Virus record (IMG/VR): IMGVR_UViG_3300031998_000057
Span: 8,532 to 72,531 of that record
Length of the DNA: 64,000 bases
DNA from: a virus
Lineage: Duplodnaviria; Caudoviricetes
Strand: one strand, 5' to 3'
A model generated the notes under the pieces. The model made no database searches. It was not told where the DNA came from and was given only the letters and a program-made list of their open reading frames with translations. Positions 174 to 64,000 of this stretch are shown here, in pieces (position 1 is the first letter of the stretch; each line of letters begins with the position of its first letter). Position numbers and translations under genes: made by a program.

Positions 174-251
174 TGGTGGGCCGTCAGGGACTCGAACCCT
201 GATCTTCTCTGCTTTTGAGGCAGCTCCGTCTTCCCATTGCGGCAACGGCCC
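174..251 (-). tRNA. tRNA-Leu(CAA), 78 nt, CCA-encoded, short variable loop
   Basis: Reverse complement folds as a cloverleaf: acceptor GGGCCGT/ACGGCCC, D-arm CCG..CGG, anticodon loop CTCAAAA, T-arm CAGGG-TTCGAGT-CCCTG, discriminator A + CCA. Confidence 0.85.
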
Positions 252-3598: not shown

Positions 3599-3736
3599 GC
3601 ATTTTTTCGGCATTTTCCGAAAAAATTTTGCTCGGCGGTAGCCAAAACCGTTTTCCCCGGTTTGGTGTAGGCGAGGACGAAAAACGACGGGCGGCGGCTG
3701 CGGCCCGGAAACAAAAAATCGAACGGAGGCAATACA

Positions 3737-56798: not shown

Positions 56799-57315
56799 CT
56801 TCTCCGCTCCCGATCAGATATACGTCGTACTGCCCCGTGATCGCGTAGCACTCCGCATGATCCGCGCAGAGCACGTCGATATGCTGCCCGGTCATGCCGC
56901 CTCTGTCTTCTACCACGCGCTCGCCCAGGCCCTCGATCCAGAGCCGGGTGCCAAACGGCAGCCCGTTCGCGGCGCACGTCCGTCCTACCGTCGCCTCCGC
57001 GCCGGAGGCCGTGATGCCGTCCGTCTTTCCGCAGCACTCCGCGCAGATATCGTAGCCCGAAACACGGTAGCGCCCCAGGTACGTCCATCCGTCCGCTGCA
57101 TCCTTCGGCGGCTCCGGCAGCCTCGGCGTCGGCGCTGTCGCTACGCGCTCGATGGTAGGCAGCCGCCCTGCGTCCGCGTCCTCCAAACGCACGTCGCTCA
57201 GAGGCTCCATTGCCGGGTACGCCCGTGTCACTGCGGTGCAGACGAGTGCGCCGAGTATCACCACCAGGATCATGGCCGCCAGATCCTCAAGAGCGTGAAG
57301 TAATCGGTCACTCAT
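56788..57315 (-). CDS. 3D-domain protein with N-terminal membrane anchor
   Basis: GITASG..GRTCAA..LPFGTRLWIEGLGERVVEDRGG..IDV. Confidence 0.85.
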   Translation of the reverse strand: MSDRLLHALEDLAAMILVVILGALVCTAVTRAYPAMEPLSDVRLEDADAGRLPTIERVATAPTPRLPEPPKDAADGWTYLGRYRVSGYDICAECCGKTDGITASGAEATVGRTCAANGLPFGTRLWIEGLGERVVEDRGGMTGQHIDVLCADHAECYAITGQYDVYLIGSGEDEA

Positions 57316-58145
57316 TCCTGTGCCTCCACGAACTCGCCGTCTTTGAGCGTGTACCAGGTGTCGGCCTTAATCGTCTCGCCGTCAACGATGGCGGCCTTAA
57401 ATTCCTTAATGGCGCCGTCGCGGTTTCTGACGTAATGCACGACGAGGCTTCCCAACCCAGCCTTAAATTTGCTCTTATTACCGGCGAGCATAATAGCATT
57501 TTTCCCACCGACCTGCTTGGTCCAGTCGCCACCGACCTGCTTGGCCCCGTTGCCACCGACCTGATTGGCCCCGTTGCCACCGACCTGCTTGGCCCCGTTG
57601 CCACCGACCTGATTGGCCCCGTCGCCACCGACCTGCTTGGTCCAGTCGCCACCGACCTGCTTGGTCCAGTCGCCACCGACCTGATTGGCCCCGTTGCCAC
57701 CGACCTGATTGGCCCTGTATCCACCGACCTGATTGGCCCTGTATCCACCGACCTGATTGGCCCCGTCGCCACCGACCTGATTGGCCCAGTCGCCACCGAC
57801 CTGCTTGGCCCCGTTGCCACCGTTGGATCTTTCAATATCGCACTGCTCCTTGACCCATTCCACATGGGCCTTCACAAGCCCTGGAATCCCGATTTCCGCG
57901 CCGATGGTGATCTTCTTCCCAACGCGCTTGCTGTCGCCGGATCTCTCCTCGCTCACGTCCTCCAGCTCTGCCTCGCAGTAGCGCCCCTCTGTCGGTGGAT
58001 AGTATGTGAATACGTCCAGCGGAGCCTCGCAGGCGTGGAAGCCCGTCTCGCACAACTCCGCTTTGTCTGTCTCATAGGTCTTTCCGACCTCATACTGGAA
58101 CCCTCGGCATTTCAGATCTTTGTCAAACCCCTTGTATGCTTTCAT
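57312..58145 (-). CDS. phage protein with conserved N/C domains and 13 octapeptide repeats
   Basis: MKAYKGFDKDLKCRGFQYEVGKTY..GFHACE..; C-terminal IVDGETIKADTWYTLKDGEFVE. Confidence 0.88.
   Translation of the reverse strand: MKAYKGFDKDLKCRGFQYEVGKTYETDKAELCETGFHACEAPLDVFTYYPPTEGRYCEAELEDVSEERSGDSKRVGKKITIGAEIGIPGLVKAHVEWVKEQCDIERSNGGNGAKQVGGDWANQVGGDGANQVGGYRANQVGGYRANQVGGNGANQVGGDWTKQVGGDWTKQVGGDGANQVGGNGAKQVGGNGANQVGGNGAKQVGGDWTKQVGGKNAIMLAGNKSKFKAGLGSLVVHYVRNRDGAIKEFKAAIVDGETIKADTWYTLKDGEFVEAQE
57505..57822 (-). repeat. 24-bp tandem coding repeat (xxxxQVGG x13)
   Basis: CCACCGACCTG(A/C)TTGG.. units in frame within the ORF. Confidence 0.95.
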
Positions 58146-59928: not shown

Positions 59929-60627
59929 ATGGATATTTTGTTGGAGCGTATCTTATCACTGATCCCACGCAAACCTAACGGTGATTATGTTCACGGGGCA
60001 AAAAAGGATTTTGCTCAAAAGATCGGGCTGAAAAGCGGTAATGTCGTTTCGGATTGGATCGCTGGGCGCAACCGCAGCTATGAAGATTATGATTATAAGA
60101 TTGCAAGCGTGTTTAATGTTGCGTTGGAATGGCTTCACGGTGAGACCGATGATCCGACGCCGCCTCCAACCGTGGGCCGCAACTATTTTATTACCCCTGA
60201 GATAGCCGACGATACCGTGCAGATGCCTGTCATCGGAGGCGTTGCCGCAGGATATGAGCGCATAGCCTACGAGGATTGGACGGGGGACAGCATCGAGATC
60301 CCGCGCTCGTATCTTCGCGGACATGAACCGCAGGAATATTTCGTCCTCCGCGTAAAAGGCAACAGTATGTACCCGGATTATCAGGAGGGCGATCACGTTC
60401 TCGTATTCCGGCAGGACACGATGGATCGTAGCGGTCAGGTCGGCGTTGTGATCTACGGGGACGAATGCGGCACGTTGAAGCGTGTAGAATACGTCCAAGG
60501 TGAGGATTGGATGACCCTCCGCCCGATAAACCCAAATTTCCCACCCGTCACGATCCGCGGGGAAGAGCTGGAGCATTGCAAGGTTTTAGGCATAGCCAAA
60601 ATGGTTATCCGCGAACTCGACCAATAA
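59929..60627 (+). CDS. CI/LexA-like repressor (HTH + S24 peptidase)
   Basis: N-terminal HTH; VAAG cleavage site, VKGNSMYP, TLKR. Confidence 0.92.
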   Translation: MDILLERILSLIPRKPNGDYVHGAKKDFAQKIGLKSGNVVSDWIAGRNRSYEDYDYKIASVFNVALEWLHGETDDPTPPPTVGRNYFITPEIADDTVQMPVIGGVAAGYERIAYEDWTGDSIEIPRSYLRGHEPQEYFVLRVKGNSMYPDYQEGDHVLVFRQDTMDRSGQVGVVIYGDECGTLKRVEYVQGEDWMTLRPINPNFPPVTIRGEELEHCKVLGIAKMVIRELDQ

Positions 60628-60662
60628 AAAAAGCCGCCACGAATGGCGGCGGAAAGGACGAT

Positions 60663-61811
60663 ATGATCTGCGTCAAATGCAACAAGGAAGCGCCGGACGC
60701 GCCCTATTGCGCCCTCTGCGGGTGGAAGCAAAGCGCAAAGCCCGTTACCCGTACAAAGCGTGGAAACGGGCAGGGAAGCGTCTACAAGCTCCCAAGTGGG
60801 AAGTACAAGGCCGTTGTGATAAAGGGCTACTATTTCGATGAGGATGGCAAGCAGCACAAGCTGACGGCCTCCCGCGTCTGCGAGAAGAAGAAGGACGCCG
60901 TGGCCGCCATTGCCGAGCTTCAGCAGACTACAACCAGGAAGCGCGAGACCATCACGTTCAAGGCGCTGTATGACCGTTGGCTCCCCACGCATCGGGCAGG
61001 CAAGGGGACGCTTAACTGCTACAAGGCGGCATTCAAGGGCTTTCGCCCATTGTGGGGTCTGAAGATGGAGGATATCGATATAGATGATCTTCAAGAATGC
61101 GTGGACGAATGCGGCAAGGGCAAGCGCACAAGGCAGAATATGAAAGCTGTCTGCGGTTTGGTCTATAAGTACGGCATCCCGCGAAAGGTGGTTCCCGAAA
61201 ACCTCAATCTCGCTCAGTTCCTTATCGTAGAGGGTGACGCCGCCGCCGCCCGTGAGTCCTTCACGCCCGCGCAGATCGATCAGATACGAGAAGCCATCGG
61301 TACGGTGGACTACGCCGATTATATCTACTGCATGATCTACCTCGGCTTTCGCCCGACGGAGTTCTGCGAGCTGGACGTGACGGATTATGATGCGGAGCGT
61401 GGCTGCATCATCGGCGGGAGCAAGACGGAGGCAGGCACAAACCGTACCGTGACGATATCGCCGAAGATAGCCACGATCATCAGAGACTTGGCGGAAAACA
61501 AAAAAAGCGGCCCCCTGTTTCCCAACAAAGAAACAGGGAACCGCCTCAATAATCACTCGTTGAATAAAGCCATGTGCGCCGCCTTGGAAGAGATAGGCAT
61601 AGAAAATCCCGTTGTCACAATCGGAGGCGGCGTTCAGCGCCGCAAATTCACACCACATAGCTGCCGCCACACCTTCGCCACGCTGATGAAGCGCGTCGAG
61701 GCTCCGTCCAAGGACAAGCAGGAGCTGATAGGCCACGCCTCGGAGCAGATGCTCGCCTACTATCAGGACGTAGACCTTACAGACCTCAAAAAGATCACAA
61801 ACGCCATCTAA
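60663..61811 (+). CDS. int: tyrosine integrase with N-terminal zinc ribbon
   Basis: CVKC..CALC; RGNGQGSVYK arm-binding domain; GFRPTE, GSKT, HSCRH, IGH, YY. Confidence 0.95.
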   Translation: MICVKCNKEAPDAPYCALCGWKQSAKPVTRTKRGNGQGSVYKLPSGKYKAVVIKGYYFDEDGKQHKLTASRVCEKKKDAVAAIAELQQTTTRKRETITFKALYDRWLPTHRAGKGTLNCYKAAFKGFRPLWGLKMEDIDIDDLQECVDECGKGKRTRQNMKAVCGLVYKYGIPRKVVPENLNLAQFLIVEGDAAAARESFTPAQIDQIREAIGTVDYADYIYCMIYLGFRPTEFCELDVTDYDAERGCIIGGSKTEAGTNRTVTISPKIATIIRDLAENKKSGPLFPNKETGNRLNNHSLNKAMCAALEEIGIENPVVTIGGGVQRRKFTPHSCRHTFATLMKRVEAPSKDKQELIGHASEQMLAYYQDVDLTDLKKITNAI

Positions 61812-61899
61812 AAATATTTTCAGTCTCCGGGTTCGCGTTCCGAAAATCTATTGAAAAATTCTTGAGCGGCGCTTACGTCACCCAAAAACCAAAAATCAC

Positions 61900-62162
61900 G
61901 TTGCTACTCCGTTGCCACTCGATCACAATTCCAATCATCGAAAAGGCAAAGAAAAAACCTTGAAACCCGCACAGTTTCAAGGTTTTTTCTTGGTGGAGAT
62001 AAGCGGGATCGAACCGCTGACCTCTTGAATGCCATTCTTTTCAAGATTGCCTTTCTATGTGCGTGAAACGCTAAAAATGCGCTAAATTAGGGCATTTTCG
62101 TCAGATTAAAGTATTCTGAAATATCTAAAAAAACCGCCGCGTTGCTACTCCTGTTGCTACTC
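61900..62162. mobile_element. attP: core plus arm-type sites
   Basis: Core 61991-62036 is the reverse complement of the tRNA-Ala(GGC) 3' half (AATGGCATTCAAGAGGTCAGCGGTTCGATCCCGCTTATCTCCACCA); GTTGC(T/C)ACTC at 61900, 61911, 62141, 62153. Confidence 0.88.
61949..61991. terminator. bidirectional terminator next to the att core
   Basis: AAGAAAAAACCTTGAAAC-N7-GTTTCAAGGTTTTTTCTT. Confidence 0.85.
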
Positions 62163-62227
62163 GTAATTTCCATTTTCGGCTATTGAAAAAAATGTTGACA
62201 AGCCCCTTATGTTATTGTATCGTGAAT

Positions 62228-62870
62228 GCGGTCGAAAGGCTGCTGTATGTAGCAGTACAGCAAAAACAGCAACGGCACGACGGTTGCGGCTATAAAGTCT
62301 ACTACGCTTGCTACAGCGTTTTAGAAGGGCTGAATAAGTCCTACGCCGATCTCCTGTTCGTGCCAGGGATCGGCGTTTAATTTTACTCTGATTTCCCATA
62401 AAGCAAGTCGAGCGAGAACGAAAGTCATGTTGAAGCGGACTTGTGCTGGGGGCAAGGCGTGAGGAGTGCCTTGCTCTGATGCACATATCGTTGCAGATGT
62501 GGCTACCGTGTCTCGCTTTTTTGTTCCTCAACGGTCAGGTGGGGTAGAGCCGCTGCATAGAGTCTACTCGTGGGGCAAGGTCAAGCTCCCCGTCAAACCG
62601 CTAAAGCTGACGCGGAATAAAAGTGATGTTAGGTGGATTCGTTGCAGAGCAATCTGCGGACGTTTGCCGATACGGTTCCTTGTGGGAACGAAGCAGGATG
62701 AATAAGCCGTATTGGACATTGAGCGACGGGCGGCTCCGAAGAGCCAATCAGAGCAAAATGGTCGCCCCTCACCAAAGGGACGACCATCTCGCTCTGGGAC
62801 CCACCAAAAAGCCAACAAGCGCTTAAACAGAGCGAAAAAAGTGAGGAAAAGGCTTGCACCTCTTCCTCAC
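62228..62870 (+). ncRNA. candidate large structured non-coding RNA (about 640 nt)
   Basis: TTGACA(62195)-N17-TATCGT(62218); no credible ORF; dense hairpins with GNRA loops; ends at a hairpin at 62841-62870. Confidence 0.6.
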
Positions 62871-62872
62871 CG

Positions 62873-63229
62873 TTATTTCCATCCGTCCTTCGCCAATATA
62901 AACAGCGCCCTGCGGATCGTATCGCCGTCGCCCAGCTTCATTTCCTCGTGTACACGTTCATGGCACGTCCGGCAAAGCGTTATCAGGTCACGCATCTGCT
63001 CGTTTCCTAAATGCCGATATGTTATGTGGTGTACGGTGAGATAGTCCGTCGCTCCGCACAGGCGGCAGTGAAAGTTGTCAAATTCCAAGCGCTGATATCG
63101 CTTCTCCTTCCATTCGGGTGAGACGATATACTTGCTGTACTTCGGGAAATGCTGCTTTGATTGCCGGTTATAATTCGCCTTGTACTTGTTTCTGCCTCGC
63201 GGCTTGCTTCGCTTCTTCTGCTTCGCCAT
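62873..63229 (-). CDS. HNH endonuclease
   Basis: CRLCG..VHHITY..LITLCRTCHERVH. Confidence 0.9.
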   Translation of the reverse strand: MAKQKKRSKPRGRNKYKANYNRQSKQHFPKYSKYIVSPEWKEKRYQRLEFDNFHCRLCGATDYLTVHHITYRHLGNEQMRDLITLCRTCHERVHEEMKLGDGDTIRRALFILAKDGWK

Positions 63230-64000
63230 AAGCGGTCATCACCACGCTTCCGTGTTTATACTGGCGGCAAGCGGCGGCAGAGCAGCGCCACGGTTGAAGG
63301 CCGTGAACCGTGAGCTGTCTGACGGCTGCCCTTTCACCGCCGCAAGCCATAAAGTCCGCGCCGACGCCCACTATGAAAAACGTCGGCGTTTCAATTGTGA
63401 AATGCGGAGATATACCATTCAAAGCACTCCTCCGCGCTGTTGAAGTCTGCTACACGGGGGTTTGTATCGTAGGTTTTGGCTCCTCGTCCGACGGATTGCT
63501 CCTGCAACGTCACAGCCAATAATTCATAAACGTCTCTCCCGCGATCTTTTTGGTGTGAGCCTGTGCGGGGCTGGCTCCGATCTGTCGCTTCTGAGACTCC
63601 AAATCCATAGGTCGAAGATTTGTACTCCTGTCCACTCGTCGAATCGCGGCCCTCGAATTTCCGTGCGGGGGGCTACTTGTTGATTGGATTCGGTTCCGTT
63701 CGTTCTCCGCTCCCTCTGAGCATCCACATCCACCAGCCGAGCATCTGTTCCCCGATTGTGTGTGTGTGTAGAAGCCGCGTCGGTCAGCAGTTGCTTATCC
63801 AATACTCCAAGTTCTGCTCCCCCGTCATCGTCAGCCACCATTGCACCGGCAGACCGTGCTTGTTCATTGTTCGATCCACCACAAGAGGGCTTCCGTCCCG
63901 CCCCCCCGAGCCAAGCTTGCCGCCGCTTCGGGTCTCTCTCTCTCTCTGTCTCTCTCTCTACGTGTATAATCTGTGAAGTCATCGCGTGTGTCGGGTCTCC

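Follow-up and report, generated by a model that had tools for sequence, protein, structure and literature searches.

The window analysed here is a stretch of 64,000 nucleotides that forms the last 64 kb of a 72.5-kb phage record of the IMG/VR database (IMGVR_UViG_3300031998_000057), which is rated 92% complete. Towards its end, between the arm of the phage attachment site (attP) and a convergent HNH endonuclease gene, lies a cassette of 709 bp free of open reading frames (ORFs; 62164-62872, plus strand), in which the original prediction, made from the sequence alone, had placed a single structured non-coding RNA of about 640 nt. Our analyses indicate that the cassette is probably an entire gene with a promoter of its own, encoding a large structured non-coding RNA that belongs to a family outside Rfam 15.

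Features of the locus

The end of the window carries a lysogeny module comprising an XRE-type gene, an S24 peptidase-type repressor gene and a tyrosine integrase gene (60507-61811, plus strand; Pfam PF00589, E 5.5e-21), the last with more than 2500 homologues that, where named, belong to Oscillospiraceae/Clostridia. On the other side of the cassette, the HNH endonuclease gene (62873-63229, minus strand; Pfam PF01844, E 1.6e-7) converges with the proposed RNA gene and has a 79% identical homologue (P0121) plus the cluster of the latter. The region was found in only two sequencing runs, both of DNA and both from a bovine gut metagenome that is probably the source sample. Outside the cassette the window is densely coding in the standard code, so an alternative genetic code is not the explanation for the ORF-free stretch.

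Transcription of the plus strand would start from a sigma-70-type promoter, TTGACA-N17-TATCGT (62195-62223), which a promoter scan returned with 10 of 12 consensus matches, in agreement with the earlier claim, and as the only plus-strand promoter-like site in 61700-63300. Downstream follow a variable 5' domain (62228-62481, plus strand), which cannot be aligned with the homologues described below, and a conserved core of about 330 nt (62482-62813). All the stems listed in the original prediction were recovered on reading the sequence. At the expected start of the RNA, the hairpin GCGGTC-GAAA-GGCTGC (62228-62243) is present with two G-U pairs; ACGCCGATC at 62343-62351 pairs with GATCGGCGT at 62368-62376, followed by a T-rich run; and AGCGAGA at 62411 pairs with TCTCGCT at 62511. 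Within the core, GCAGA-GCAA-TCTGC (62644-62657), GGCTC/GAGCC (62732-62745) and ATGGTCG/CGACCAT (62758-62787) are likewise in place. The pseudoknot proposed for the 5' domain survived in part: the loop TCGTGCC of the ACGCCGATC/GATCGGCGT hairpin is complementary to GGCACGA at 62274-62280, but the 62274/62358 pairing is not conserved in sequence and stays a single-sequence prediction. The same applies to the 5' stems as a whole, which exist in the sequence but are not conserved, comparative support being confined to the 3' half (62482-62813).

The hairpin that had been taken as the end of the RNA is also present (62840-62871, 14 bp with a T-run in the terminator scan), but its T-run lies on the minus strand, directly after the HNH stop codon, and for this reason we regard it primarily as the terminator of the HNH gene, shared at best; it is possibly also a weak 3' end for a plus-strand RNA. 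Folding of 62226-62875 is well beyond chance (z = -5.35 for the plus and -5.51 for the minus strand), and as both strands fold similarly well, folding energy does not choose between them.

Homologues and their carriers

When 401 genomes from the order of the host were searched with BLAST, one real match emerged (L133), a 1868-nt contig of an Oscillospirales-type genome with 74% identity over 62536-62665 (E 3e-12). The motif common to the window and L133, scanned through JGI metagenome contigs, led to L151, a contig of 2362 nt that begins and ends with the same 141 nt, corresponding to a circle of 2221 bp or a tandem array. The five closest relatives (59-99% identity) of a small ribbon-helix-helix (RHH)-like ORF of L151 lie on contigs of 1-1.6 kb with an RNA-like region upstream (L163-L172), so that three lineages were available for comparison: the phage window, L133 and the circle clade (L151, L163-L172). 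More distant relatives of the same ORF (L173, L174) have no such RNA region. On these two phage-like contigs (L173, L174 147-1214) they immediately precede a gene for an HNH protein of 102 residues.

The phage, L133 and L151 have only the RNA region in common. L133 and L151 follow one layout, in which a stretch of 70-86% G+C is followed by the promoter, the RNA region and one or two tiny ORFs, helix-turn-helix (HTH)-like in L133 and represented in L151 by the RHH-like ORF and a further one of 46 codons. The ORFs of the G+C-rich stretch have no Pfam match, and no replication gene is recognisable on L133 or L151.

The RNA is rare: a single reference genome among the 401 searched in the host's order contains it, as does a single phage record. 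GenBank phages gave no DNA match for the window or for L133, and plasmids gave none. In IMG/VR, an exact-motif scan had no result, two motif scans yielded only chance matches in coding DNA, two pseudo-ORF scans across the region found nothing, and the HNH relatives held there were without the element. A search of 32 genomes of the L133 family recovered only L133 itself, and a model search of 151 genomes recovered L133 plus one chance match of 17 bits. Because of this rarity catalogue-based searches have missed the RNA, yet its compensatory evolution across three lineages is clear.

Compensatory changes in a conserved core

The core begins with a CAUAUCG motif and the hairpin P1 (62482-62536, plus strand; alignment A3), formed by 62495-62497 with 62511-62513, the loop of which, UGUGGCUACCGUG, pairs with 62531-62535. 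This pseudoknot joins the P1 loop (CUACCGW) to WCGGU 20 nt downstream, and together the two elements are 92% paired, three pairs having changed on both sides, including an A-U to U-A exchange in the pseudoknot. The remainder of the core (62537-62813, plus strand; model R2) folds into eight further helices: P3 (62544-62548/62563-62567), P4 (62572-62575/62588-62591), P5 (62598-62601/62612-62615) and then P2 (62632-62636/62801-62805), which closes a junction holding P6 (62644-62648/62653-62657), P7 (62667-62675/62707-62715), P8 (62732-62736/62741-62745) and P9 (62758-62769/62776-62787). Some exchanges are evident by eye: P5 reads CCGC/GCGG or GCCC/GGGC depending on the lineage, and P6 alternates between GCAGA-GCAA-TCTGC, GCAGA-GAAA-TCTGC and GCCCC-TGCG-GGGGC. 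In P7, a helix of 9 bp in the window, seven of the eight pairs counted have changed on both sides and are still paired.

MAFFT misaligned the variable interior (P7-P9), and a first covariance model built from that alignment (R1) repeated the misalignment and gave weaker counts. The model used here (R2) was therefore built from five circle-clade sequences only, with the structure set by hand, the window and L133 not being used in its construction. It nonetheless matches plus-strand positions 62537-62813 of the window with its entire length (model positions 1-263 of 263; 47 bits, E 4e-14) and L133 at full length (63 bits, E 2e-19).

The covariation analysis that the original prediction had called for revealed compensatory changes in ten helices across the three lineages. 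Standard pairs occupy 95.1% of cells (81.7 +/- 1.4 in shuffles), and 23 of 48 pairs have changed on both sides, against 8.0 +/- 2.2 expected from shuffling; none of 500 shuffles reached 23. The covariation score was 0.337, compared with 0.111 in shuffles, and sliding the partners by 1-3 columns reduced pairing to 35-47% and the score to 0.029-0.052. Among the limits of this evidence, P2 (GGUGG/CCACC) varies only from G-C to G-U, and P8 of the window is handled by the model as an insertion, though a hairpin stands at the same place. Overall, the comparison indicates that compensatory substitutions maintain the fold of 62482-62813 across the three lineages.

The original prediction had left undecided whether the RNA was ROOL, GOLLD or a new class. 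The Rfam search that it proposed favours the last, since Rfam 15 returned no match to ROOL, GOLLD or any other such family. With 4227 families and the whole window searched at gathering score, the only hit was a tRNA (177-251). In 61800-63000 at E<=10, only microRNA and small-RNA models appeared, at 12-21 bits and far under their cut-offs, ROOL, GOLLD, HEARO, OLE, raiA and T-box not being among them. The homologues L133, L168, L151 and L172 matched no known family at E<=1, ROOL and GOLLD included, and ARAGORN found neither tRNA nor transfer-messenger RNA in the region.

Strand, transcript architecture and coding potential

Every lineage has a TTGACA-type promoter on the same strand as the core and 215-285 nt ahead of it; in the homologues this promoter reads TTGACA-N18-TATGGT (L168) and TTGACA-N17-TACAAT (L133), both with TG. 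Loops of the GNRA and UNCG types occur on the plus strand, namely GCAA, GAAA and UGCG in P6 and, downstream of the core in the circle clade, UUCG or UCCG. We favour the plus strand as the transcribed one because both the conserved promoter and these loops lie on it.

All lineages also possess a strong terminator-like hairpin between promoter and core, and the single transcript of 640 nt originally envisaged is therefore not supported in that form. In L168 and L133 this is a hairpin of 14 pairs with a U-run, at the same relative place; the window has two terminator-like structures, one at 62343-62386 and another formed by 62411-62417 with 62511-62517 and followed by a U-run, whose 3' arm (62511-62517) overlaps P1. 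The order of promoter, variable 5' segment with terminator-like hairpin, and core is the same in all lineages, and on the same strand. Conservation of the hairpin suggests gated read-through, in which the variable 5' segment, ending in an intrinsic-terminator-like structure, would control transcription into the core, and the locus may give two products, one of about 150 nt from the 5' part and one of about 600 nt that extends through the core. In the window, the overlap suggests a competition between the terminator and the P1/pseudoknot fold.

The non-coding character that had been proposed was supported. The region admits ORFs as long as 124 codons, and a protein gene was considered and rejected: none of the six ORFs drawn has a Pfam match, and no frame is conserved among homologues. 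Every frame of the core is interrupted by a stop in at least one of the seven aligned sequences, and most insertions and deletions have lengths not divisible by three, also where the sequences are closely related (1, 1, 1 and 2 nt in L166 relative to L168).

Boundaries of the cassette

None of the close phage relatives carries the cassette. In relatives of the integrase (L007-L009, 73-87% identity) and of the HNH gene (L012, 79%), attP stands directly between both genes and takes up about 360 bp in total; in L012 the arm repeats, hairpin and tRNA piece begin 36 nt past the HNH stop codon. Two other HNH relatives (L010, L011) display a different tRNA-type att site 100-150 nt after the HNH gene. 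Nothing resembling 62164-62872 occurs in the relatives fetched (L007-L012), and the cassette therefore appears to be a module acquired by this phage lineage at the attP-proximal end. A contig of the source sample agrees with the window across the arm repeats as far as 62162, beyond which its sequence is unrelated, which places the left boundary at the same position. The edges of the cassette bear imperfect 24-nt direct repeats (62150-62173 and 62859-62882; family D2) that are 75% identical and end in T[AT]ATTTCCAT. Between its HNH and integrase genes, another phage contig (50,987 bp, not identical to the record) has a gene-free gap of the same length, 1061 nt, which may hold the cassette as well.

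The attachment site

The claim that the stretch adjoins attP proved correct. The minus strand of 61993-62037 is the 3' part of a tRNA-Ala(GGC), from anticodon loop to CCA, identified as the attP core by exact matches in genomes; four 12-nt arm repeats surround it and the tyrosine integrase gene lies upstream. More than 120 genomes have an exact match to a 43-nt tRNA piece, most of these genomes being named as Oscillospiraceae, Acutalibacteraceae or other Clostridia; the piece falls inside tRNA-Ala(ggc) in L073 and is single-copy in the 72.5-kb record. The arm repeats (family D1, CGTTGCTACTCC-like) start at 61899, 61910, 62140 and 62152; two of them stand on the integrase side (61899-61921, plus strand), and the other two (62140-62163, plus strand) mark the end of the attP arm and the left boundary of the cassette. 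The same 12-nt repeats are present in L007-L009 and L012. Beside the core, a perfect 18-bp hairpin with a T-run (61949-61991, minus strand; 19 pairs in the terminator scan) is kept next to the tRNA piece in many host genomes, and is the terminator of the tRNA gene that integration would rebuild. A captured host flank was considered as a source of the cassette and rejected, the segment not being found beside tRNA-Ala in 120 genome stretches with an exact att core.

In the source runs, no Logan contig spans the tRNA core, in which read depth rises to 466-649 from 14-17 on either side, so the join across it is taken from the IMG/VR assembly and from the second contig of 50,987 bp, each arm being covered separately by a contig. 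Contigs of close integrase relatives break at the same place, leaving the att arm visible and the sequence beyond it not. The whole attP unit (61847-62163) is inverted with respect to L007-L009 and L012: the arm on the hairpin side follows the integrase gene here, and the HNH gene in the relatives. Since each arm is covered by its own contig, this inversion is not an assembly join, and it would flip the orientation of the prophage at the tRNA-Ala gene. Three host loci (L049, L028, L014) contain the exact 43-nt tRNA-Ala 3' piece without a detectable full tRNA gene, and in L049 the match to the phage runs on through the hairpin (90% over window positions 61939-62037); these pieces are probably the ends of resident integrated elements of the same att family.

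Elsewhere in the window, the tRNA returned by Rfam corresponds to a complete, phage-borne tRNA-Leu(CAA) gene (174-251, minus strand) unrelated to the att core. An ORF of 277 codons (57312-58145, minus strand) includes thirteen tandem 24-nt units (57433-57864) encoding an 8-residue GGNGANQV-like repeat, and a CT-dinucleotide run of about 35 nt (63928-63962) lies near the record end, 63927-64000 having been treated as a repeat in read placement.

Proposed function and alternative explanations

The most plausible interpretation of 62164-62872, an independently promoted RNA gene, has to be set against several considerations that weaken it. The runs containing this DNA are DNA only. Its strand is called from the orientation of promoter and terminators and from tetraloop types, as the helices, with G-U in 8 cells and A-C in 5, do not discriminate between strands and both strands fold equally. 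Terminator-like hairpins upstream of the core imply that the core may be poorly transcribed. The covariation comes from only three deep lineages, with five of the seven aligned sequences in one clade, and from an alignment fitted to the structure of the model, which favours pairing; moreover, it reflects past selection and not the present function of the phage copy.

As to function, the product would act as RNA itself, not as a leader, because the only gene downstream in the phage is convergent and the ORFs downstream in L133 have a promoter of their own. Tentatively, and by analogy, the likeliest of the roles considered, though less probable than not, is that the RNA serves the propagation of its carrier, since its other homes are elements of about 2 kb without a recognisable replication protein, on which it is the largest conserved feature and is accompanied by no more than a stretch of about 80% G+C and one or two tiny ORFs of DNA-binding type. 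Such a layout would suit a replicon that is primed or controlled by RNA, after the model of ColE1 RNA II. From it the phage would have taken over just the RNA gene, at its attP-proximal end, the usual place of prophage accessory genes. A bolder version, speculative and on balance unlikely, makes the RNA the replicator of gut-Clostridia circles of about 2.2 kb that seem to have no replication protein, and a Firmicute counterpart of RNA-primed plasmids: a pseudoknotted, attenuator-gated RNA of about 600 nt, the only sizeable gene of the circles, captured by the phage at its attP end. If this were true, the RNA would perhaps allow the phage to persist as a plasmid, or else to disturb such elements or turn them to its own use. 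Against a role in replication, no RNA I-type antisense promoter was seen in the window by a simple consensus scan, itself a weak test, the sole minus-strand site (62201-62172) pointing away; circularity comes from one contig only, and a tandem array would assemble alike; and it is not evident why the phage should require an origin of this kind.

The main alternative, rather doubtful but to be taken seriously all the same, is that the RNA acts in trans in a ROOL- or GOLLD-like job, for instance as a self-assembling particle or a host- or phage-directed effector, and is an accessory gene expressed in lysogeny and unrelated to the replication of its carrier. Its setting in a prophage at a tRNA-derived site, its bovine gut source and its length of about 0.6 kb are those of a ROOL/GOLLD-like lifestyle (PMC5737381). 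The phage kept only the RNA gene and no other parts of the small elements, and the most conserved loop, UAAAGCUGA, contains a self-complementary AGCU that would allow a kissing contact. There is, however, no match in sequence or structure to ROOL or GOLLD, whose own function is unknown, so that a trans-acting role predicts little; and it leaves unexplained why elements of about 2 kb carry almost nothing but the RNA. Three further explanations appear progressively less likely than this one. In elements of the L151 type the RNA precedes ORFs on the same strand, and a conserved terminator-like hairpin is typical of attenuators; it is conceivable, if distinctly improbable, that the RNA is a cis-acting leader with an attenuator for the small downstream ORFs of the circles, and the phage copy a functionless fragment left by illegitimate recombination, with which the short imperfect direct repeats at the cassette edges would agree. 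Yet the ORFs that follow the RNA in L133 are served by TTGACT-N17-TACAAT, the downstream ORFs are unrelated (HTH in L133, RHH-like in L151) while the RNA is conserved, and the terminator stands before the conserved structure, the reverse of the riboswitch order. Nor does the phage copy resemble a fragment, as it retains the promoter, all helices and a full-length model match, and the second phage contig, which may contain the cassette too, has the same ORF-free HNH-integrase gap of 1061 nt.

Covariation cannot separate RNA from single-stranded DNA, the proportions of G-U and A-C are uninformative, both strands fold well and the carriers are tiny circles, all of which would suit a structure used as single-stranded DNA, be it a single-strand origin or a replication or packaging signal of small rolling-circle-type elements. 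We consider this very unlikely, given a strong promoter whose distance and strand are conserved across the lineages, GNRA and UNCG tetraloops, which are hallmarks of RNA, and elements on which no Rep gene was found; single-strand origins are, besides, generally smaller and simpler than a pseudoknotted structure of about 330 nt. Finally, phage att regions are often long and ORF-poor, and ORFs as long as those mentioned above would be compatible with a decayed or small protein gene, so that the segment might be nothing functional, an attP arm or spacer folding well by chance. This is hardly credible in view of the 23 compensatory pairs among homologues in unrelated contexts, the lack of a conserved frame, and att arms that stop at 62163, relatives having a functional-looking attP without this segment.

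A further, speculative activity of the RNA in the phage belongs with the bolder version described above. The early region includes ten plus-strand copies of an A/T-rich tract followed by GGTAGCC-N18-GTTTGGT(G/A)TA (sites GGTAGCC-N18-GTTTGGTG; at 3637, 4195, 4550, 4992, 5896, 8444, 9555, 10928, 12165 and 15702), mostly shortly upstream of ribosome-binding sites, which looks like a phage-specific promoter class. The two halves of the motif are complementary to the conserved RNA motifs GGCUACC (62501-62507) and CACCAAA (62802-62808), through which the RNA might conceivably regulate phage transcription; the complementarity could be due to chance, since the pseudoknot and P2 also account for the two RNA motifs.

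Bacteria have few large RNAs of intricate fold, and unusual chemistry or unusual assemblies have emerged for most of these. Here the function is approachable, since the small carriers encode little besides the RNA and it can be asked whether the RNA alone maintains a DNA element in Clostridia, and a prophage holding only the RNA gene at its attP end suits a clean deletion test. The cassette would also add a further case of a non-coding RNA gene, and not a protein gene, moving as a discrete unit between mobile elements.

Comparison with known RNAs

In the circle clade, the sequence GGGUGGUAUCGUGG resembles the T-box sequence at 12 of 14 positions, with no match to the T-box model. It is found at 535-548 of L168 and at the same place in L151, L170 and L163, and is weaker in the window (62632-62645) and in L133. 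Its GGUGG pairs with a CCACCA-like 3' tail, reminiscent of the pairing between the T-box bulge and the tRNA acceptor end. Unlike T-box RNAs (RF00230), however, the RNA has no specifier stem and is followed by no aminoacyl-tRNA synthetase or amino-acid gene, the only gene downstream in the window being convergent.

ColE1 RNA II is a structured RNA of about 550-600 nt that is transcribed from a strong promoter and dominates very small circles without a replication protein. The likeness is that of a promoter-driven structured RNA dominating tiny circular elements with tiny ORFs for helical or DNA-binding products. In contrast to ColE1, there is no sequence relation, the hosts here are Clostridia and not Proteobacteria, the sense strand has an internal terminator, no antisense control promoter is seen, and the phage copy has no evident need for an origin.

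With GOLLD (RF01998), whose covariance model is not matched, the RNA shares the character of a phage-borne large structured RNA near tRNAs; there are no motifs in common, and it is shorter than the approximately 0.8 kb given for GOLLD in the original prediction. Both ROOL and GOLLD are large and ornate and occur in prophages and near tRNAs, ROOL having been found first in cow rumen data and being outranked in length and structural complexity only by ribosomal RNAs, GOLLD and group II introns (PMC5737381). An abundant megaplasmid-borne long non-coding RNA of Lactobacillus salivarius (PMC5643018) is ROOL according to the note added in proof to PMC5737381. The likeness to ROOL extends to a length of about 0.6 kb, multistem junctions, at least one pseudoknot, the rumen, prophages, a tRNA neighbourhood in Firmicutes and a promoter of its own, and the setting is equally ROOL-like, with a temperate phage, a tRNA-Ala-derived attP of Oscillospiraceae-type hosts and a bovine gut source; the setting alone does not confer membership, and the ROOL model (RF03087) is not matched. 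The RNA differs from ROOL in that its core is about 330 nt and is preceded by a variable segment with a terminator-like hairpin, in being far rarer, and in that its other carriers are elements of about 2 kb, whereas those of ROOL are chromosomes or megaplasmids. Taken together, these comparisons identify the predicted RNA as a new class of large structured RNA, similar to ROOL and GOLLD in lifestyle and a member of neither.

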